A stretch of DNA of 64,000 bases from a virus. The position numbers and the translations under genes are program-made. This document shows, piece by piece, positions 7,847 through 64,000 of the stretch. Numbering within the stretch: position 1 is the first letter of the stretch; each line of letters starts with the position of its first letter. The stretch is taken from positions 1 to 64,000 of the IMG/VR virus record IMGVR_UViG_3300014208_000003; one strand, given 5' to 3'. The notes below the pieces were generated by a model. It saw only the letters and a list, made by a program, of their open reading frames with translations, searched no databases and was not told the DNA's origin.

Positions 7847-8763
7847 TAATATCTGTTTTATGTAAGCGATTAGAGGCGTTAGGAATAAAATATATTTCTG
7901 ATAGTGGTTCTGATATTACTTTTTGTTGTAATGCCTGTAAAAAGGAATCTACGGCTACTATAACTGTTCTAAGGCATCGTTTCAAGCATCATCTCCAAAT
8001 TTGTTCCAAGTGCAATCCTTCAATATCATTTCCGGAAAAGACTATTCTAAAATTTGTTTCGGAAATAACAAATACAGAAATAATTCCGAATGATAGAAAA
8101 CAATTAGGTGATATGGAGTTAGATATTTATTTACCGAAGCATAATTTGGCATTTGAATTTAACGGATTATATTGGCATTCCGAGGCATTCAAGCCAAAAT
8201 GTTATCATAAATTAAAAACAGAATATGCGGATAAAAGAGGAATTCATTTGATACATATTTGGGAGGATGATTGGAGAGATAAGACAGAAACAGTAAAATC
8301 ATATATCAGAAATTTGTTACTTGAAAATAAGAATAGAGTATATGCCAAAGAATGTGTTTTAAGCAAGATTTCGAAAAGTGATGCTGAAGAGTTTTTCCGG
8401 AGAAATAGTTTAGGGAATGATTTGAAAGCTGATGTTTGTTATGGGTTATTTAAAGGAGAACTAATATCAATAATGTGTTTCCGGAAGATTTCAGAAGGTG
8501 TTTATAATTTGGTTTATTTTTGTAATGATTTGAATACTGGTGTTGTGGGTGGATATAAAAAAATGTTTGCGGAATTTGTTAAGGAATATTCTCCGGAAAA
8601 AATTTACAGTAATGCTTCTCGAGACTGGTTTAAAAAGAATGATTTGGACTATAAATTGTTAGGTTTTAAGTTCACTAAATACATTAAAGAGAAAAGTATT
8701 AAAAAAATTGGTTTGAATAAGGTTTGGAATAGTGGTTGTTTACATTTTGAATGGAGTAAGTAA
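7789..8763 (+). CDS. Hef-like homing endonuclease
   Basis: CxxC zinc motifs, ELDIYLPKHNLAFEFNGLYWHS, IHIWEDDW and VWNSG. Start codon uncertain. Confidence 0.75.
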   Translation: MGSGIINQHIFESSSRRFLIISVLCKRLEALGIKYISDSGSDITFCCNACKKESTATITVLRHRFKHHLQICSKCNPSISFPEKTILKFVSEITNTEIIPNDRKQLGDMELDIYLPKHNLAFEFNGLYWHSEAFKPKCYHKLKTEYADKRGIHLIHIWEDDWRDKTETVKSYIRNLLLENKNRVYAKECVLSKISKSDAEEFFRRNSLGNDLKADVCYGLFKGELISIMCFRKISEGVYNLVYFCNDLNTGVVGGYKKMFAEFVKEYSPEKIYSNASRDWFKKNDLDYKLLGFKFTKYIKEKSIKKIGLNKVWNSGCLHFEWSK

Positions 8764-9356
8764 TGGTTTTAATGAAGAATATTTTACCTCATGCAGTTCA
8801 AGCAATGTCTTTTGGAACTGGTCGGATATATGTTTTTAGATCAGGTGAAGAAAAATGGTGTGATGATGGTATGGAAGGAAGATATGGTGGAATTCTTAGA
8901 ACAATAAAAAGTGATAAGATGGATAACGTTAATGTCATTCCGGAAATTTTTTCAGAACCAATATTCGTAATAGCTCCTGAACAAATGAAAAAAGTAGAAG
9001 AGAGTGTTCCGGAAAATATTAAAGAAGATGTTCCTGAAGATGTAATAGTAGAATTTCAGGAAAAAGTTATCGAAAAAATTCCGGAAGATATAACAGAAGT
9101 ATCTCCGGAAGAATTAACTATAGATGATGTTACAATTTATCCTTTAGAAGATGTATTAAAAGCAGAACAAATTATCTCGGAAACTGTTAAAGAAAAAGTT
9201 ATAGAAAAGATTCCTGAACAAAATCTAAATACTACTGAAAAGAACTGGTATAAAAAACAACCGGATAAAAAGAGAAAATATAATAAGGTAAAGAAAATAA
9301 ACGTTCAAGAAGCACTGAAAAAATTAAAAGAAGAAAATAATGGCACGAATAACTAA
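8763..9356 (+). CDS. acidic low-complexity protein with PE repeats
   Basis: EKVIEKIPE occurs twice. CTAAATA at 8675 upstream. Confidence 0.5.
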   Translation: MVLMKNILPHAVQAMSFGTGRIYVFRSGEEKWCDDGMEGRYGGILRTIKSDKMDNVNVIPEIFSEPIFVIAPEQMKKVEESVPENIKEDVPEDVIVEFQEKVIEKIPEDITEVSPEELTIDDVTIYPLEDVLKAEQIISETVKEKVIEKIPEQNLNTTEKNWYKKQPDKKRKYNKVKKINVQEALKKLKEENNGTNN

Positions 9357-54291: not shown

Positions 54292-54608
54292 TGTTGAAAC
54301 CTTCGAGGATTTATACTTCCAAAAATAGAATTTGTTATGATTTTATTTTCAAACAGGCTCCGAAAGTTTGTTTGAGATGTATTGTTATTGAAGGAAAACT
54401 GGTTAGTATCTTATGGGAGCGTCAAAATAGAATATCACGAAAAGGATGGTCAAAAAAGAATATTGAATAACTTCCGGAATGTGTCTTGGAAGTTCTAAAC
54501 CATCCTTTTCTTGATATAGATATTGCTAAAAGTGATTTCTCTAAAATTGAATATCGGAAAATGGTTTGGAATACGAAAGATACACAAATGTCGTTCTTAG
54601 TAAAATAA
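54288..54608 (+). pseudogene. VPE/PFFEID-family paralog interrupted by an in-frame TAA at 54468
   Basis: After ...KKNIE* the same frame continues LPECVLEVLNHPFLDIDIAK... Confidence 0.7.
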
Positions 54609-57746: not shown

Positions 57747-58529
57747 ATGATAAAAGAATCAATTTTCGATCCTATTCAAAAAGAACTTTCAAAAGATGTC
57801 TGGAATAATAACCAACTAATTCCTGCTATCAAAACCCAAATCATAAACACTTTCTCAAACTTCCTGAATAAACACAATCTAAAACAAGTTATCAAATCAA
57901 TGAATGTTCTAGGATCAATAACAGGATATCAATACACACCAACTTCCGATATTGATGTGAATGTTGTCCTAGACCTTCCGGAAGAATCCCTGAAAGAACT
58001 ATATAAAGACTTGCCAAATAACATCTTAGCAACAAATACCAAACATCCTATCAACTATTATATTTCAACTATCTGGAAACCCGAATGGTCAAAAGAATCT
58101 AATGGCGTTTATAATATTCTAAAAAATGATTGGCAAAAACTTCCTGAACAACCAAAAACAAACCCAGACAATAATCTTAAACTAGTTTCAGAAATATCCA
58201 GATTCTTCACAACAGGTCTAGATTCAACAATATCCGAATTTTTCCGAGATCTAGACTTCTATCAAACAACTAATAACACAGAATATAAAAAACAAAAATT
58301 CCAAGAACTAAAAGAAGACTATATCTCAATCCAACTAGCACAACACATCCTCCACCAATTCAGAGGAGAAGCATTTCAAAATAATCCATTCCCAATAACT
58401 ATCAATATAACTTCTGCAAATGAATCTATTAACAACATGATTTATAAGTACATAGAGAAATTAGGATACCAAGACACTATCAACAGAATCTCCGGAATAG
58501 CAAAAGAACTCAATCTATCTGCCTCTTAA
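57747..58529 (+). CDS. Pol-beta-superfamily nucleotidyltransferase
   Basis: LGSITGYQYTPTSDIDVNV and HPINYY. Confidence 0.75.
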   Translation: MIKESIFDPIQKELSKDVWNNNQLIPAIKTQIINTFSNFLNKHNLKQVIKSMNVLGSITGYQYTPTSDIDVNVVLDLPEESLKELYKDLPNNILATNTKHPINYYISTIWKPEWSKESNGVYNILKNDWQKLPEQPKTNPDNNLKLVSEISRFFTTGLDSTISEFFRDLDFYQTTNNTEYKKQKFQELKEDYISIQLAQHILHQFRGEAFQNNPFPITINITSANESINNMIYKYIEKLGYQDTINRISGIAKELNLSAS

Positions 58530-58794
58530 ACCTTGCTAAATCAATTTCAAAAAATGGATTAGAAATATATTCCTGAACACTTTTTAAAATATCTTCCGGA
58601 ACATTCTCTATATATGTCCTATTTCGTTCATAACTATCCGCCAATAATGAATCACACTCTATAGTACAACTTTTAGCACTCATTAAATAACCCACATAAA
58701 TATACTCGATCACCACGGACTTTTCTGAATGTATTCTTTTCTCTATCACAAACTCAAAAATAAAATCCCAATTTAAAATATCAATTATTTTCAT
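58510..58794 (-). CDS. VPE/PFFEID paralog
   Basis: NVPEDILKSVQEYISNPFFEIDLAR. Confidence 0.8.
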   Translation of the reverse strand: MKIIDILNWDFIFEFVIEKRIHSEKSVVIEYIYVGYLMSAKSCTIECDSLLADSYERNRTYIENVPEDILKSVQEYISNPFFEIDLARFKRQID

Positions 58795-59069
58795 TTTGAC
58801 TGACTATATCTTTCCAAATCAATATCGAAAAATGGTGACTTAATATATTCTAAAAGCTTCTCCGGAACAGAAGACAGATTAATCTCATAAAAAGTCTGAT
58901 CCGCATAAAAATACCTTTCGCCATTATCATAACTAAATTTTATCTCATCTTCATAATTCCAATACTCTACATCAATCTTTTCCGAATAAGTGTACCAAAT
59001 ACAATAAGCACTTCTGCCATTTTCATAATTAGAATAAAATTTTCCCAATTCGCGTGTATTACTTTCCAT
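58791..59069 (-). CDS. VPE/PFFEID paralog
   Basis: VPEKLLEYIKSPFFDIDLER. Confidence 0.8.
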   Translation of the reverse strand: MESNTRELGKFYSNYENGRSAYCIWYTYSEKIDVEYWNYEDEIKFSYDNGERYFYADQTFYEINLSSVPEKLLEYIKSPFFDIDLERYSQSK

Positions 59070-59310
59070 ACTTCCTCGCAATATCTATCTCTAAGAAAGG
59101 TGACTCAACATATTTTCTAAGAACCTCCGGAACATCATCAACAGGAACTTCTTGAACAATATTGCCATTATAACAATGAGCTATATAAAAACCGTTAATA
59201 CTTATTAAATCCATTCCTCGCAACTCTATATCCAAACTATGATCATACGTATACCAGTAAACATTTATATCGTTCTTGTAATATCTCCCAATCTTTCGGT
59301 TCAAATCCAT
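59059..59310 (-). CDS. VPE/PFFEID paralog
   Basis: VPEVLRKYVESPFLEIDIAR. Confidence 0.8.
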   Translation of the reverse strand: MDLNRKIGRYYKNDINVYWYTYDHSLDIELRGMDLISINGFYIAHCYNGNIVQEVPVDDVPEVLRKYVESPFLEIDIARKYGK

Positions 59311-59597
59311 TATATTTCATTCTTTCTTAGCCACCGATCTTTCCAACCTATCTTCTGCTTATATCTTTCAAAATCTATCTCAAAGAAAGGATCATCAAGC
59401 TTCTTTTGAAACATTTTTCGAATCTCTTCCGGAACATCATCAATATCTACAGTCTTCTCAACAATAATAGTTTCTAACGATTCTGACAATACTCTAAATT
59501 CTAAACTATGACTAAGGAATATATAATTATAATTCTCTATCATATCTTCCTCTAAAACACATTCCCAACAATTGCCCCACTTTAAAAATCTCACCAT
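59310..59597 (-). CDS. VPE/PFFEID paralog
   Basis: VPEEIRKMFQKKLDDPFFEIDFER. Confidence 0.8.
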   Translation of the reverse strand: MVRFLKWGNCWECVLEEDMIENYNYIFLSHSLEFRVLSESLETIIVEKTVDIDDVPEEIRKMFQKKLDDPFFEIDFERYKQKIGWKDRWLRKNEI

Positions 59598-59615
59598 AAT
59601 TATTCTCCCAACACG

Positions 59616-59903
59616 TCAATACATTCCGATCTTTAATCTCTCCAATTCAATATCTAAAAATGGATCTAACAACTTATCAGAAAACACTTTAACAACATCT
59701 TCCTGAACAACATCAACCAAACATCTTTCTAACACCAATGACCTACAATTACACCTATCAAGAGTAACATCATTCAGATTATCTTTAAAACATCCCATAC
59801 TAATATAATCAACACGATCTTCAATACAAGACATCCATAATACTTTCTCATATATATTTTCCCACCTCAACACATCTCCAACTTTAATCATATGTTCTAT
59901 CAA
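59616..59903 (-). CDS. VPE/PFFEID paralog
   Basis: VQEDVVKVFSDKLLDPFLDIELER. Confidence 0.8.
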   Translation of the reverse strand: MIEHMIKVGDVLRWENIYEKVLWMSCIEDRVDYISMGCFKDNLNDVTLDRCNCRSLVLERCLVDVVQEDVVKVFSDKLLDPFLDIELERLKIGMY

Positions 59904-60141
59904 TCTCCCTTTTCAAATCAATCTCCAAAAAAGGATCAGAAAAGATATTCCTGAAATCTTCCGGAACTTCTGACTCATCAACCCGTACACAACATTTTTC
60001 AAATCCCTCATCTATTAAAAAGAATCCATACCTTCCAACATAATGAAAACATATATAGAATCCCGAAATCCCAACCCATAAATGTATATGAATATCCTTT
60101 AACCACCTGTAATATAAATCATCCTTCTTATACCAATTCAT
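59884..60141 (-). CDS. VPE/PFFEID paralog
   Basis: VPEDFRNIFSDPFLEIDLKR. ATG60141 overlaps the upstream gene end. Confidence 0.8.
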   Translation of the reverse strand: MNWYKKDDLYYRWLKDIHIHLWVGISGFYICFHYVGRYGFFLIDEGFEKCCVRVDESEVPEDFRNIFSDPFLEIDLKREIDRTYD

Positions 60142-60508
60142 TTCCCACCCACAAACTAGCACCCTCACATTCCAACCTATTCCCAACAGTATCAAATAAA
60201 ATCACACGACTATCGCAAACACCTATAGCACAATGCCAAACACTTCCAAAAGCATCATTACTAAAACACTCATCAACTATAACCTTCTTATCTCTAAAAC
60301 CATCCTCAAATCCAATATATTCAAAACTGCTTATAACATCCCTAACTCCATACTTATCCCTAATATAATCCCTCTCAACATCATTCCTAACAACCATTAA
60401 ATATCCCAACCCACTCTTCAATAACTCAATAATAGAACTTGTCTTACCAATATTACAAGGAGCTATCACCAAACCACCTTTTATAATCTCTTCCGTTATC
60501 CCATTCAT
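60128..60508 (-). CDS. minimal P-loop protein inside the paralog array
   Basis: Walker A-like APCNIGKT and Walker B-like VIVDE. Lacks the family tag. Confidence 0.55.
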   Translation of the reverse strand: MNGITEEIIKGGLVIAPCNIGKTSSIIELLKSGLGYLMVVRNDVERDYIRDKYGVRDVISSFEYIGFEDGFRDKKVIVDECFSNDAFGSVWHCAIGVCDSRVILFDTVGNRLECEGASLWVGNELV

Positions 60509-60759
60509 CCTAACCTCCTTTTAATATCTATCTCTAAGAAAGGTGATCTAAGATATTCCAAAAGCTCTTCCGGAACATCTTCAATATCCACACCCTCAAA
60601 ATAATCTGAAGGCTCCGGACAATTCCCCCTTCGATGATATATGTTAATTCTACCACCCTTCCAAAACTCTATATCAATATCTTCCGAATAGACTAACCAA
60701 ATACATTCCCAAACTGATAATAAATTGCTCCGGTAATATTTCCCAACTTCCCTCTTCAT
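60505..60759 (-). CDS. VPE/PFFEID paralog
   Basis: VPEELLEYLRSPFLEIDIKR. Confidence 0.8.
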   Translation of the reverse strand: MKREVGKYYRSNLLSVWECIWLVYSEDIDIEFWKGGRINIYHRRGNCPEPSDYFEGVDIEDVPEELLEYLRSPFLEIDIKRRLG

Positions 60760-61001
60760 TTATTCAAACACCTTCCTAAATCTATCTCAAAAAACGGTGA
60801 TTGCATATATTCCCAAACACGCTTCCAAATATCTTCCGGAATCTCTTTTGATTGAATCGACCAACCAAACGATGATAATTTATATATCCTCATCAAATCT
60901 TCTCTTTTTTCAACAATCAACACGTATTCCTCAAAATAAATATCATACCTATCATCATAAATTATTACACCTATAGCATTAACCAGCTTCTTATAATTCA
61001 T
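60756..61001 (-). CDS. VPE/PFFEID paralog
   Basis: IPEDIWKRVWEYMQSPFFEIDLGR. Confidence 0.8.
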   Translation of the reverse strand: MNYKKLVNAIGVIIYDDRYDIYFEEYVLIVEKREDLMRIYKLSSFGWSIQSKEIPEDIWKRVWEYMQSPFFEIDLGRCLNK

Positions 61002-61300
61002 GACAACTTCCTTTTCATTCTCTCCAACTCTATCTCAAAAAATGGATTAGACATATATTTCTGGAATGCTTTAACAACTTCTTCCGGAATAACAATAATT
61101 CTACGACTTTCTAATGTATTCAAAAACCGCATACCCATATCATCTAAACCATATAATTCAACAGACTTATCTTCGTAATGTCTTAAAACAATATAAGAAA
61201 CACATCTCCTACCATTATATTCCGCAACATCAGAAAGCCAAATCAACTTCTCTATACAAAATCCCCACTGTATCATATCTCCAACTTTAACTTTATGCAT
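60998..61300 (-). CDS. VPE/PFFEID paralog
   Basis: IPEEVVKAFQKYMSNPFFEIELER. Confidence 0.8.
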   Translation of the reverse strand: MHKVKVGDMIQWGFCIEKLIWLSDVAEYNGRRCVSYIVLRHYEDKSVELYGLDDMGMRFLNTLESRRIIVIPEEVVKAFQKYMSNPFFEIELERMKRKLS

Positions 61301-61578
61301 TACTTATCATCCCATCCTATCTTCCGCTTAAACCTCTCCAATTCAATATCAAAGAAAGGATCCAATAACCTATTCCGAACATTATTCAAAATAGATTCCG
61401 GAACAAAACTTATATTAATTAACTTCGTATCATAATGTTCACAAGCTATAATACTACTGTTTAAATCCATATCCCGATCCAAATAAATATATTCACTTTC
61501 TTCTACCCTAATTTCTCTTATTAACACAAACTCATAAAATACTCTACCCCATGACAATATCCCAATTATCCTTTCCAT
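61300..61578 (-). CDS. VPE/PFFEID paralog
   Basis: VPESILNNVRNRLLDPFFDIELER. Confidence 0.8.
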   Translation of the reverse strand: MERIIGILSWGRVFYEFVLIREIRVEESEYIYLDRDMDLNSSIIACEHYDTKLINISFVPESILNNVRNRLLDPFFDIELERFKRKIGWDDK

Positions 61579-61823
61579 CCCTGCCTATACCTTTCTACAT
61601 CAATATCCAAAAATGGCGACTCAACATATTCCCGAAGAACTACAGGAACATCATCACCAAATATCTCCTGAACAACAACATCATAATACGACGTAACATT
61701 ACCAAACACACAATTTATAATTATCTTATCAACACATTCCCACTTCTCTATATCTACATTCTTATCATACACATACCAATCACACACATTACCCCTATAA
61801 TACTTCCCGATCTCCCTTTTCAT
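61566..61823 (-). CDS. VPE/PFFEID paralog, first gene of the operon
   Basis: VPVVLREYVESPFLDIDVER. Confidence 0.8.
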   Translation of the reverse strand: MKREIGKYYRGNVCDWYVYDKNVDIEKWECVDKIIINCVFGNVTSYYDVVVQEIFGDDVPVVLREYVESPFLDIDVERYRQGWKG

Positions 61824-61830
61824 AAATCAT

Positions 61831-61859
61831 AATATAAAACAACAATATAATATCTACAA
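61831..61859 (-). promoter_or_regulatory. sigma70-type promoter of the paralog operon
   Basis: TTGTAG-N17-TATATT, then 7 nt to the ATG at 61823, with no SD. Confidence 0.6.
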
Positions 61860-62022
61860 GCAAAATCGGCAAATATATAAAGAAATATTATCCGGAAGAA
61901 CTCATCGCTAATCATTATGTCCAAATCTTAACACATCGTTCACTTATTAACACTTTGTTCATTTCCCTTCTATAACTGTATTGTACACTTATTTACAGTT
62001 ATTTACACTTTCTTACAAAATA

Positions 62023-62099
62023 ATTCCGGAATACTTCAAGAATATCTCCGGAACATTATCTTGAACATTCCGGAATACTTCTAGAATATCTCCTGAACA
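62023..62099. repeat. two 33-bp direct repeats (44-bp period) in a non-coding divergent region
   Basis: ATTCCGGAATACTTC(A/T)AGAATATCTCC(G/T)GAACA at 62023 and 62067. Confidence 0.8.
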
Positions 62100-62205
62100 A
62101 CAAAATTATATAAAGCAGATCCACATATTTCTTTCCGATCAAATCAAGTATAATCATTCAGGAAATATTTTTAATAATGTTCCGGAATAATTTCTAAATA
62201 CTTTC

Positions 62206-62694
62206 ATGAACAATATAAAATTAAATTCTACAACCTATATGCATCCGGAATTATTCAAGAAGTATTCCAAATTACTTATCCAATCAAATCGTTTAGGAAT
62301 TTACTTTATAGTCACACAGGTAGCAAGAACTCCTGAATATCAAAAGGCATTATATTATCAGGGTAGACTTCCGGCTGATACTGTTAATGAGATGAGGTTA
62401 AAAGTAAATCTTGCACCTATTACTTTGAAACAGAATCGAATAGTAACATCAACATTAAAGTCAAAACATTTATTCAAAACATTTCCGGAATATGGTTCAA
62501 AACAATTTTCGGAAGCATTTGATGTTGCGATTATAAAACCAAATTCTAAAATAATTCTTTGGGATAAACCTGATATCAACAATAATAACAAGAATGATTA
62601 TGAGGAGCTTGGAGTTATAGGAGAGTCATTAGGATTATATTGGGGTGGCCGTTTTAAAAATATTGATATGCCACATTATGAAATTAGATTGTAG
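62206..62694 (+). CDS. M15-family (L-Ala-D-Glu-like) peptidase endolysin
   Basis: RT..YQ..LY.QGR, SKH, AFDVA and WGGRFKNIDMPHYE. Confidence 0.88.
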   Translation: MNNIKLNSTTYMHPELFKKYSKLLIQSNRLGIYFIVTQVARTPEYQKALYYQGRLPADTVNEMRLKVNLAPITLKQNRIVTSTLKSKHLFKTFPEYGSKQFSEAFDVAIIKPNSKIILWDKPDINNNNKNDYEELGVIGESLGLYWGGRFKNIDMPHYEIRL

Positions 62695-62980
62695 TCTTCT
62701 TAGGAATAAATAATTTTTCAATGTTAGCGATATATCTTTCAACATCAATATCAAAAAACGGATCATCAAGTTTCTTCCGGAAGATGTTTTGAATATCTTC
62801 TGGTGGACGGTTCGTTGTGCTTCTACCTTCTATATATGTTAACGAATGCCAGACTAGTTCCGGTTCAATCTTTTCCCAAGCCAATGTCAATAATATTACT
62901 AGTGATGAATGATTTATATTACTTGGTACGGTTTTAATAACAATATAAGATTCACGGGCAGATCTATATATTTTAAGCAT
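62684..62980 (-). CDS. VPE/PFFEID paralog
   Basis: PPEDIQNIFRKKLDDPFFDIDVER. Confidence 0.8.
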   Translation of the reverse strand: MLKIYRSARESYIVIKTVPSNINHSSLVILLTLAWEKIEPELVWHSLTYIEGRSTTNRPPEDIQNIFRKKLDDPFFDIDVERYIANIEKLFIPKKTTI

Positions 62981-62984
62981 TCTT

Positions 62985-63236
62985 TTAAAACCTTTGTCTA
63001 ATATATCTTTCTAATTCTATTTCCGAAAAAGGATCTTGAATCTTTTTCCGAACCATCTCTTGAACATTCTCCGGAACATCTTTAACATCAACATCAATAT
63101 CTAAACATCTTAACGAATCCTTATACCACCAATCTAATCGAAATTGTTTATATTGAATCAGGTATCCGAAACAAACATCTTTATAATAATCGCCAACCTT
63201 ATAAAAATAATCATTCCAATAAACATTAAACCACAT
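62985..63236 (-). CDS. VPE/PFFEID paralog
   Basis: VPENVQEMVRKKIQDPFSEIELER. Confidence 0.8.
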   Translation of the reverse strand: MWFNVYWNDYFYKVGDYYKDVCFGYLIQYKQFRLDWWYKDSLRCLDIDVDVKDVPENVQEMVRKKIQDPFSEIELERYIRQRF

Positions 63237-63513
63237 TCTTTAACCACCTTATATATTCAATCTCTGTAAAAGGATCATCAAACTTATTCCGGAATGCTTT
63301 TACAATATCTTCCGGAACATCTGCTTCTGAAATTGGTTTGTAATGTTTATCTATATCACGAATAAAACAAATACCTTCATCAAATATCGAATTATATAAA
63401 CAAATTCTTCCGGAAGATGCCACGTAAAAATCTACTGGTAATAAAATATCATCCGACCAATTTTCATGGTAAATCTGCATACTGGAATATAATAGATAGA
63501 AGGTCTGGAACAA
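63226..63513 (-). CDS. VPE/PFFEID paralog (start uncertain)
   Basis: VPEDIVKAFRNKFDDPFTEIEYIR. Confidence 0.7.
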   Translation of the reverse strand: MFQTFYLLYSSMQIYHENWSDDILLPVDFYVASSGRICLYNSIFDEGICFIRDIDKHYKPISEADVPEDIVKAFRNKFDDPFTEIEYIRWLKNVV

Positions 63514-63578: not shown

Positions 63579-64000
63579 ATGAGAGAAATTGAATTGAGTA
63601 ATGGTATGGTAACTAAAGTAGACGATGAAGATTTTATTTATCTATCACAGTTTAACTTCCATTTTAAGAAACAAACCGATCCAAGATACAAATATGGTTA
63701 TGCTTATAGAGTGATTTGGAATAAGGAAACTAAAACTAAAAAAGCATTGGATATACACAGAGAAATTATGAATGCTAAAAAAGGAGAATGTGTTGATCAT
63801 ATTAATCATGACACATTAGATAACAGAAAAGAAAATTTAAGAATATGTACTCATCAACAAAATATGTGCAATAAAGCTAAACTATCAAACACAAGTAATT
63901 TATATAAAGGTGTTTCAATAATGAGTAGAAATAAATTAAGACCCTATGTTGCAATGTGTGGCGGAGATTTTGTTGGTTGCTTTAAAACAGAATTAGAAGC
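63579..64000 (+). CDS. HNH (probably HNH-AP2) homing endonuclease, runs off the window
   Basis: Hand translation: VDDEDF...IHREIM...VDHINHDTLDNRKENLR...YKGVS. GGAGG RBS. Confidence 0.85.
   Translation, partial: MREIELSNGMVTKVDDEDFIYLSQFNFHFKKQTDPRYKYGYAYRVIWNKETKTKKALDIHREIMNAKKGECVDHINHDTLDNRKENLRICTHQQNMCNKAKLSNTSNLYKGVSIMSRNKLRPYVAMCGGDFVGCFKTELE

Follow-up and report, generated by a model that had tools for sequence, protein, structure and literature searches.

The genome of a distant T4-like groundwater myovirus (158,262 bp) carries a lineage-specific and massively duplicated family of small proteins with a conserved C-terminal segment and a fast-diverging N-terminal half. With 36 intact and two decayed members, the family accounts for ~14% of the genes, or about one gene in seven, and for 6.7% of the DNA; a comparable share of genes taken up by a single family of small proteins is not known to us from any other phage. 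The phage itself is placed by matches to portal, major head, and sheath PHROGs and by a capsid 33-35% identical to those of T4-type phages. The protein family appears to be new, no described sequence or fold relatives having been found among the databases searched, and it is probably a repertoire of host-interaction proteins.

Extent of the family

The window analysed is the stretch of 64,000 nucleotides at positions 1 to 64,000 of the IMG/VR record IMGVR_UViG_3300014208_000003. A preliminary description of this DNA had reported an array of 14 tagged paralogs, and all 14 minus-strand ORFs are present, 11 at 58510-61823 and three at 62684-63513 (Table 1), each ending in the alignment with [VIP]P[EV]-x(7-11)-[DNS]PF[FLST][ED]I[ED]xxR; the array is nonetheless only part of a much larger family. 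When all 902 ORFs of the genome were searched with a hidden Markov model (HMM) of this C-terminal tag, the array members were recovered at E values of 1e-12 to 1e-20 and the family members genome-wide at 1e-5 to 1e-20, the top ORF outside the intact family (0.0055) being itself a decayed copy. Such E values indicate that the members are real, homologous genes. The decayed pair consists of one frameshifted copy and one stop-interrupted relic at about 54.33-54.61 kb.

Gene packing is as tight as first described, with 10 of the 11 junctions in the main block overlapping by 1-68 nt and the remaining junction being an 18-nt gap, while the member at 58510-58794 runs at its 3' end into the convergent + strand gene 57747-58529, overlapping it. 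For the members at 58791, 59616, 59884, and 63226 the database gene calls give shorter proteins (92, 91, 85, and 84 aa), so that the longest-ORF starts probably lie a few codons too far upstream. No gene of the genome is more depleted in C than the untagged ORF inside the main array, which gave no relatives in family searches; as a candidate conserved partner of the family it was rejected, being without a homolog in the related contigs examined.

Table 1. Family members and neighbouring features in the window.
Feature	Position	Strand	Remarks
Decayed family copy	54330..54608	+	HMM E 0.0055; one in-frame stop just ahead of LPE...HPFLDIDIAK interrupts an N-half-like frame
Last member of main array, 94 aa	58510..58794	-	IL.W subfamily; HMM E 5e-19
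Member, 96-aa longest ORF, 92 aa as called	58791..59081	-	KREIGKYY subfamily; HMM E 2e-14
Member, 83 aa	59059..59310	-	KREIGKYY subfamily; HMM E 2e-13
Member, 95 aa	59310..59597	-	IL.W subfamily; HMM E 1e-20; modelled tag helices 57-67 and 72-83, pLDDT about 90
Member, 95-aa longest ORF	59616..59903	-	KVGD subfamily; VQE replaces VPE; HMM E 6e-17
Member, 103-aa longest ORF, 85-aa database call	59884..60195	-	Start probably near 60141; HMM E 2e-13
Untagged 126-aa ORF	60128..60508	-	Walker-A-like (GKTS) and VIVDE motifs
Member, 84 aa	60505..60759	-	KREIGKYY subfamily; HMM E 1e-12
Member, 81 aa	60756..61001	-	HMM E 4e-19
Member, 100 aa	60998..61300	-	KVGD subfamily; HMM E 1e-18
Member, 92 aa	61300..61578	-	IL.W subfamily; HMM E 2e-18
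Member 1 of main array, 85 aa	61566..61823	-	KREIGKYY subfamily; short helix-1 tag; HMM E 8e-15; AF2 model
Intergenic region upstream of main array	61824..62205	.	Three exact and three near TTCCGGAA copies; 33-nt direct repeat pair
Member, 98 aa	62684..62980	-	PPE replaces VPE; base composition normal; HMM E 2e-18
Member, 83 aa	62985..63236	-	HMM E 1e-18
Member, 95-aa longest ORF, 84 aa as called	63226..63513	-	HMM E 6e-18

A conserved C-terminal segment, predicted to be a hairpin

The C-terminal segment is much more conserved than the rest of the protein, as had been noticed from the array. Within the core DPFFEIDLxR, synonymous codons vary freely (CCT/CCA/CCG, TTT/TTC, GAA/GAG, ATA/ATT) and the tag DNA is merely 60-81% identical between copies, which argues that the core is kept by old selection at the protein level and not by gene conversion or as a DNA element. 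In AlphaFold (AF2) models of members from two subfamilies, a beta-sheet precedes a helix-turn-helix hairpin that corresponds to the tag; pLDDT is about 85-91 for the tag and 35-72 for the N-half. The topology at the C-terminal end is strand-helix-helix in both models, at moderate confidence, with further strands preceding it. The turn together with the first turn of helix 2 ([DNS]PF[FL][ED]I[DE]) is nearly invariant, in paralogs that are less than 25% identical elsewhere. A homodimer prediction for the member at 59310-59597 scored 0.04, giving no verdict either way.

Exactly at the junction between variable and constant parts sits [VIL]PE, where 'VPE' is mostly written TTCCGGAA, a palindromic octamer that occurs 160 times genome-wide against about 1.4 expected. 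Outside the family, 79% of NTT-Pro-Glu sites are spelled in the same way, indicating that the choice of codons for VPE obeys a DNA rule; because this rule is genome-wide, it would explain both the xPE motif and its codons. In a few members a second octamer 23 nt downstream encodes FR(N/K), an example being the member at 63226-63513, whose tag DNA holds two copies of TTCCGGAA at this distance encoding VPE and FRN. Octamer-like sites favour a spacing of 23-24 nt and cluster upstream of both arrays, and a similar 33-nt unit lies in non-coding DNA at 62023-62099. No paper tying TTCCGGAA to phages in a relevant way was found in the literature.

Variable N-terminal halves

The N-halves are near-fixed in length (59 +/- 8 aa), and the three subfamilies named in the preliminary description, KREIGKYY, KVGD, and IL.W, are recovered by all-against-all phmmer or visible in the alignment. 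The strong divergence claimed for these domains is borne out, as the subfamilies were not linked by iterated HMM comparison with decoys and reached a top hhalign probability of 30%. Tag sequence and helix-1 length nevertheless co-vary with the N-half subfamily (permutation p about 0.001). Given the constant size of the N-half, this co-variation, and the topology shared by the models, whole-gene duplication of one small fold fits better than grafting of the tag onto unrelated domains, so that a putative common fold is suggested by size, predicted topology, and co-divergence rather than by detectable homology between N-halves.

Divergence of the N-halves is fast. The HD gene flanking one member shares 67% identity with the orthologous gene of a related contig, whereas the adjacent member aligns over the tag only. 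Two contigs identical over 6.3 kb differ within a member by four non-synonymous and no synonymous changes in nine N-half codons, a weak observation made at a contig end. Diversification of the DGR type, which needs a reverse transcriptase and a template/variable repeat pair, was rejected, neither an RVT_1 match in the genome nor a near-identical DNA repeat within the arrays having been found.

Search for relatives

Scans of 36 to 85 members against Pfam, PHROG, NCBIfam, and PADLOC profiles gave no family match common to the members. Isolated matches of single members appeared at E values of 2e-4 to 8e-3, no two of them to the same family, and in Pfam one of the 85 members matched, marginally, a model that is neither ribbon-helix-helix (RHH) nor helix-turn-helix (HTH). 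Fold searches with models of modest pLDDT (63-70) produced a best E value of 0.75 against the PDB with Foldseek, a best Z of 2.6 in a wide VIA-align search, a best E value of 0.049 in BFVD, and a TM of at most 0.50 in the ESM Atlas, where searches for look-alikes, with either a complete member or just the tag as query, yielded nothing usable. The original impression of no known family holds across the profile searches, the fold searches gave no clear match, and a match to a characterised family, which would have spoken against it, was looked for and did not appear.

GenBank phages gave no match by megablast or tblastn, and of 303 IMG/VR stretches matching a pattern none was confirmed by tblastn. 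A degenerate DNA pattern for DPFFEIDL located six loci in IMG/VR and 70 in metagenomes, all of them chance matches, as none encodes a family member by HMM; a word-indexed protein search returned this genome's own proteins only. An exhaustive profile search of 1.8 billion representative proteins, by contrast, retrieved 35 own members and about 56 non-self clusters, all from a few metagenome contigs that are likewise octamer-rich, so that family and octamer occur together in this genome and every related contig. These relatives resemble the family in size and layout and keep the protein motif, and the matches usually cover profile positions of about 8-79, beyond the tag alone. Across the representatives the tag is found essentially only on proteins of 42-122 aa. 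The single fusion of the family module, to an HD domain (HD phosphohydrolase), comprises the whole module rather than the tag alone, and a relative keeps the order of HD gene then member. A syntenic association with an RlaP-type nucleotidyltransferase was rejected, the window's 260-aa neighbour not being homologous to that of L017. In relatives with 45-63% capsid identity, including contigs of 170 kb and 92 kb, the family is absent and octamer enrichment is mild at most, and no comparable phage family was found in the literature.

Genomic setting and timing

Replication and nucleotide-metabolism genes surround members of the family, which also form two divergent arrays where late and early regions meet. 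The late-type box CTAAATA precedes 21 other genes, including capsid, sheath, and baseplate genes, whereas a promoter motif scan found none ahead of any array, the sole late box in the region at 61824-62205 belonging to the divergent + strand gene 62206. Matches to sigma-70-like promoters numbered 37, not above the 46.4 +/- 6.3 expected from shuffles, so that the single early promoter proposed for the main block in the preliminary description is putative at most. Two groundwater DNA metagenomes, which may be its source, were listed as containing the stretch, and no RNA data set was. The distribution of late boxes supports the view that the arrays are not late genes, and we infer that they are expressed before them.

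Possible functions

The reading that we favour, at somewhat under an even chance, is that the family consists of lineage-specific, duplicated, compact alpha/beta proteins forming a pre-late host-interaction repertoire in which the hairpin is the constant part. Each protein would most likely be one compact alpha/beta unit, combining a three- or four-stranded N-terminal beta-sheet that evolves very fast with a C-terminal helix-turn-helix hairpin under strong purifying selection. The family would have grown as whole genes were duplicated, in tandem and in segments, with later divergence of the beta half past recognition and retention of the hairpin. The products would be small cytoplasmic binding proteins used in host takeover or counter-defence, with the hairpin as folding core, and possibly also as an interaction surface common to all copies, and with the specificity of each copy residing in the beta half. 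That one half is frozen while the other changes faster than any gene nearby is what one would expect of proteins locked in a host arms race. If the copies do serve counter-defence or host takeover, they would supply dozens of natural variants of a single scaffold with which to map specificity, and a compact framework of about 90 aa on which to engineer binders; the newness concerns the protein family, which could still be an ordinary, if unusually expanded, accessory gene set.

The seven residues of the inter-helix turn are conserved more strictly than a folding core would normally require, so that a docking role is conceivable; any shared docking partner is conjectural. The preliminary description had proposed a modular adaptor or effector system, and in the strict form of this reading the tag would be a self-standing docking peptide recruiting unrelated recognition domains to one hub (protease, polymerase, or phage complex). 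We consider this unlikely: the near-invariant turn, the failure of HMM and hhalign comparisons to link the N-half subfamilies, and the natural HD fusion with its conserved synteny speak for it, but the N-halves share a constant size and a predicted beta topology, the tags show no sign of shuffling because they co-diverge with the N-halves, the tag occurs on no recognisable larger domain among the representatives searched, and the fusion carries the whole module. A similarly small chance is given to a combinatorial library in which the invariant hairpin would plug all copies into one host or phage hub while ~36 hypervariable beta-sheets capture different host targets, such as defence proteins, with new specificities arising by continual duplication in two strongly transcribed, mutation-biased arrays, in analogy to the poxvirus ANK/F-box adaptor families.

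Packaging into the capsid, as for the internal proteins IPI-III of T4, is very improbable. The hairpin would here direct the proteins into the prohead core and then be cut off at [VIL]PE, leaving the variable halves to be injected as anti-restriction proteins. The T4-like nature of the phage, the precise position of [VIL]PE at the junction, its resemblance to the T4 prohead-protease site (L/I)xE, and the similar size of T4 IP precursors (80-100 aa) fit this scheme, against which stand the absence of late boxes from the arrays when head and tail genes have them, the C-terminal location of a tag whose T4 counterpart is N-terminal, the octamer rule that accounts for xPE and its codons, and the unprecedented number of 36 different internal proteins that it would imply.

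We attach even less credence to DNA-binding regulators of RHH-like or HTH-like strand-helix-helix type that would recognise the iterated palindrome TTCCGGAA. The modelled beta-alpha-alpha topology, the constant association of octamer and family, and the spacing and clustering of octamer-like sites upstream of the arrays are in line with such a role, but with a median pI of 5.1 and a net charge of about -1.5 for tag and N-half each the proteins are acidic, their strand and helix-1 start are rich in D/E, the one marginal Pfam match is to neither model type, fold searches gave no Arc, MetJ, or CopG structure, and one site would hardly call for 36 paralogs. Almost no weight can be given to the reading that the tag acts at the DNA level, as paired octamers, a recombination site, or a cis-regulatory site, or that the ORFs are not genes. 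Although most members write VPE as the octamer or one base off it, a few have a second octamer, and non-coding DNA holds a like unit, this reading is already contradicted for the core motif, which is the best-conserved part yet varies freely at synonymous sites and lacks the octamer, in tightly packed ORFs with overlapping stops and starts whose protein motif is kept in relatives.

Comparison with known systems

Ribbon-helix-helix proteins (Arc/MetJ/CopG), of which MetJ recognises tandem 8-bp palindromic boxes, share with the family the strand-helix-helix order predicted at the C-terminal end; the family differs in being acidic, in matching no RHH profile or, in fold searches, RHH structure, and in having an extra beta-sheet in front. 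IPI, IPII, and IPIII of T4 are likewise small proteins of a T4-type phage with a short constant segment, differing bodies, and a (hydrophobic)-x-Glu motif at the junction. Their shared segment is an N-terminal capsid-targeting sequence, whereas that of the family is C-terminal, helical, and about 30 aa long, and the family numbers 36 copies against three and has neither a late-promoter box nor sequence similarity to them.

The conceptual model behind the earlier modular-adaptor idea is the poxvirus ankyrin-repeat/PRANC (F-box-like) family, also a viral multigene family joining a variable N-terminal recognition part to a constant C-terminal module. In the poxvirus proteins the N-terminal part is a recognisable repeat domain and the C-terminal module binds the host hub Skp1; both halves of the phage proteins are orphans, the protein of about 90 aa is probably a single domain, and a hub is known on the poxvirus side only. 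The small early ORFs in the 'hyperplastic regions' of T4 and the counter-defence gene clusters of phages resemble the family in being small, packed, non-late, fast-evolving, lineage-restricted, and located between conserved replication and nucleotide-metabolism genes, but they consist of many ORFans unrelated to one another, whereas in this genome a single family makes up about 14% of all genes.

The family across the genome

The source record, of 158,262 bp with direct terminal repeats and 31.7% GC, belongs to a myovirus as identified by PHROGs for portal, major head, terminase, sheath and baseplate, and its capsid protein is 33-35% identical to those of T4-type phages such as Pelagibacter phage HTVC008M and cyanomyoviruses. 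The sequencing runs that contain the stretch are groundwater metagenomes only. The preliminary description had placed 14 small tagged genes in two minus-strand blocks, and the ORF listing recovered all of them there. Their shared C-terminal tag aligns to the consensus VPE-x-[DNS]PFFEIDLER, in which P, F, I and R are invariant, and a tag HMM run over all 902 genome ORFs of at least 35 aa scores the 14 at E values of 1e-12 to 1e-20. The claimed packing was also borne out, with 10 of 11 main-block junctions overlapping by 1 to 68 nt, several of them as ATGA; database gene calls suggest that the longest-ORF starts of four members are a few codons too long.

Genome-wide, the tag HMM matched 37 ORFs. 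The 36 intact members account for about 14% of the genes (261 by crude calling) and for 6.7% of the DNA, a copy number that is exceptional for a phage. One member is fused behind an HD domain and brings the complete module, N-half and tag; on a related-phage contig (L015:7098-7872) the orthologous HD gene, 67% identical, stops and a separate overlapping family member comes next. Beside the two N6/N4-type methyltransferase genes, no C5 methyltransferase is present in the genome.

Features of the family and its surroundings (genome positions; L001, L004, L114 and L115 are other stretches of the same genome, L001:3242 being genome position 67242)
Feature	Position	Strand	Remarks
Main block, 11 tagged genes	58510-61823	-	
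Second block, 3 tagged genes	62684-63513	-	
Array, divergently transcribed	64.9-67.5 kb	+	HMM
Single members	67.5, 69.0, 86.6, 110.4 kb		HMM
Seven members	130.3-132.6 kb		HMM
Two members	138.7-139.2 kb		HMM
One member	143.5 kb		HMM
Decayed copy, frameshifted	67242-67525 (L001:3242-3525)	+	N-half 67242-67490, tag 67382-67525; frameshift needed to join
Decayed relic	~54.33-54.61 kb (54330-54608)	+	In-frame stop just before LPE...HPFLDIDIAK
HD-domain phosphohydrolase (PF01966) + family module	131542-132336 (L004:3543-4337)	-	In-frame fusion
Two N6/N4-type DNA methyltransferase genes (PF01555)	110808-111611, 112261-113238 (L114/L115)	-	Adjoin a family member
Untagged ORF, 126 aa	60128-60508	-	Embedded in main block; Walker-A-like (GKTS) and VIVDE motifs
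Peptidase_M15_4 (endolysin-like) gene	62206-62694	+	Behind late box, opposite strand, between tagged blocks
HNH_3 endonuclease gene	63579-64000	+	Behind late box, opposite strand, interleaved with tagged blocks
197-aa ORF	8763-9356	+	24-nt (8-aa) tandem repeat (V/I)PE-x-I-x-E-x around 9007-9110
Compositionally biased regions	58500-61830; L001:900-3530	-; +	Both divergent arrays

Relatives

The earlier impression of an unfamiliar family has held: Pfam, PHROGs, NCBIfam and PADLOC give no consistent match for any member, and the family profile matches nothing among PDB sequences. Foldseek comparison of member models, as the preliminary description had proposed, matched nothing in the PDB (best E 0.75), nor did VIA-align (best Z 2.6), and nothing in BFVD or the ESM Atlas was matched by the models. 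No other family members were found in GenBank phages or IMG/VR, and a metagenome-wide pattern scan returned chance matches only. The exhaustive search did turn up roughly 56 clusters beyond this genome's own proteins; none is named, and all come from a few ENA, Logan and JGI metagenome assemblies. As far as these searches reach, nothing related to the family in sequence or fold is detectable among described proteins, and no paper describing it was found.

Each readable related contig holds between two and six members, frequently arranged in tandem, next to DnaB, Metallophos, HAD, HD, DHH, AAA_5/RlaP or SLT genes. Their GC content is about 30%, and they abound in the palindromic octamer TTCCGGAA (20 copies within 8.6 kb in one case), whereas in phages with 45-63% capsid identity the family is absent and octamer enrichment is mild at most, so that family and octamer appear as joint hallmarks of a narrow phage clade.

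Predicted structure and modularity

An AlphaFold2 model of the member at 59310-59597, built with the paralog alignment, consists of a beta-hairpin followed by helices at residues 57-67 and 72-83 (mean pLDDT 69.7, about 90 over the tag). A member of another subfamily, at 61566-61823, modelled from an 85-sequence alignment, shows four strands ahead of the same pair of helices (mean 62.7). The tag is accordingly predicted to be a helix-turn-helix hairpin in which the best-conserved residues, [DNS]PF[FL], make up the turn and the beginning of helix 2.

The N-half subfamilies named earlier (KREIGKYY, KVGD and IL.W) either emerged from an all-against-all phmmer comparison of N-halves or could be seen in the alignment. 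Neither iterated HMM searches with decoys nor hhalign found N-half links between subfamilies, which indicates that the N-halves are truly very divergent. To that extent the earlier account of strongly diverging N-domains stands. Four observations, however, oppose the idea of one tag set on unrelated cargo. N-half length is nearly constant (59 +/- 8 aa), and the order of strands followed by hairpin is common to both modelled subfamilies. The tag also diverges along with the N-half, being 44.6% identical within N-half subfamilies against 40.1% between them (permutation p ~0.001), and a helix 1 shorter by four residues is confined to a subset of members that includes all four KREIGKYY members in the window. 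Finally, when 1.84 billion representative proteins were searched exhaustively with the profile, the proteins matched were 42-122 aa long, bar one repetitive protein of 712 aa that looks like a false positive. A strict modular adaptor is therefore improbable, and the most economical account is that a single small fold was duplicated as whole genes, its two halves changing at very unequal rates.

Timing, regional composition and possible function

The heptamer CTAAATA is 11-fold enriched upstream of genes and precedes 21 of them, mostly structural, including capsid, sheath and baseplate genes as well as the plus-strand genes 57747, 62206 and 63579, all three of which lie interleaved with the arrays; others of these CTAAATA(C) boxes lie upstream of, for example, 5732, 16021, 21144 and 32711. 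It is probably a late promoter of the T4/cyanophage type. No such box was found upstream of the tagged arrays, so 'not late' is the supported statement on timing. Sigma-70-like matches are not above chance, and the single early promoter ascribed earlier to the main block is no more than a possibility.

The arrays at 58.5-61.8 kb and 64.9-67.5 kb diverge from an octamer-crowded region. On its own sense strand each of them is extremely poor in C (4-9%) and rich in G+T, with a skew of 0.42-0.79 where the genome averages 0.16 +/- 0.18. At synonymous sites, G-ending purine codons reach 41-50% against 22%, and C-ending pyrimidine codons fall to 7-9% against 22%. No gene of the genome is more depleted in C (3.7%, skew 0.79) than the embedded 126-aa ORF, which has no Pfam or PHROG match and no homolog among the related contigs examined. 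Dispersed family members lack the bias, which is thus regional and not a family trait; the 'aromatic-rich' composition noted earlier agrees with it, W, Y, C and M being raised and Q, T, A and P lowered. The cause may be strand-specific mutation confined to the region, or a codon bias, with a possible link to transcription, and its direction suggests that heavy transcription puts the non-template strand under C-to-T and A-to-G pressure.

The family may quite possibly be a diversified, non-late repertoire of small single-domain host-interaction proteins with the hairpin as their constant half, a reading that we hold tentatively; the hairpin may also dock on a shared partner. A hint of microdiversity comes from the related-phage contigs L014 and L015, drawn from Logan and ENA and identical over about 6.3 kb: nine N-half codons of one member contain four non-synonymous differences and not one that is synonymous. 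This may mark a microdiversity hotspot or an assembly-end effect, as it lies at the end of L014. DGR targets were ruled out, there being no reverse transcriptase in the genome. That the members are packaged internal proteins is less likely, and indeed decidedly so.

The palindrome and conservation at protein level

The 158 kb hold 160 copies of the octamer TTCCGGAA, which contains TCCGGA, where about 1.4 would be expected; TCCGGA itself is found 301 times against about 12. Octamer copies fall in every reading frame (75 as xPE, 50 as SG, 19 as FR(K/N) and 16 between genes), and sites with at most one mismatch favour a spacing of 23-24 nt (13 and 15 pairs, with 1.7 expected). Both divergent arrays have dense clusters upstream, for example at 61830-62200 and L001:280-930. 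Members acting as regulators that bind the octamer are a very poor prospect; the acidity of the proteins (median pI 5.1) speaks against binding to DNA.

Where the V-P-E of the tag is coded GTT-CCG-GAA, it is itself the octamer. CCG encodes the junction proline in some three quarters of members, whereas its share genome-wide is 25%. Outside the family, 57 of 72 NTT-Pro-Glu sites are also written as the octamer, so at VPE the family merely obeys a genome-wide DNA rule. In the core DPFFEIDLxR, proline is coded by CCT, CCA and CCG at ordinary frequencies, the F, E, I and R codons vary freely and tag DNA is just 60-81% identical between copies. It is thus the protein sequence of the core that is conserved, and a signal at the level of DNA alone behind the tag is scarcely credible; the same low identity indicates that the duplications are old and without recent gene conversion. 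Each 24-nt repeat unit of the 197-aa ORF begins with an octamer or near-octamer. In kind, the iteration of TTCCGGAA is like that of the cyanobacterial iterated palindrome HIP1.
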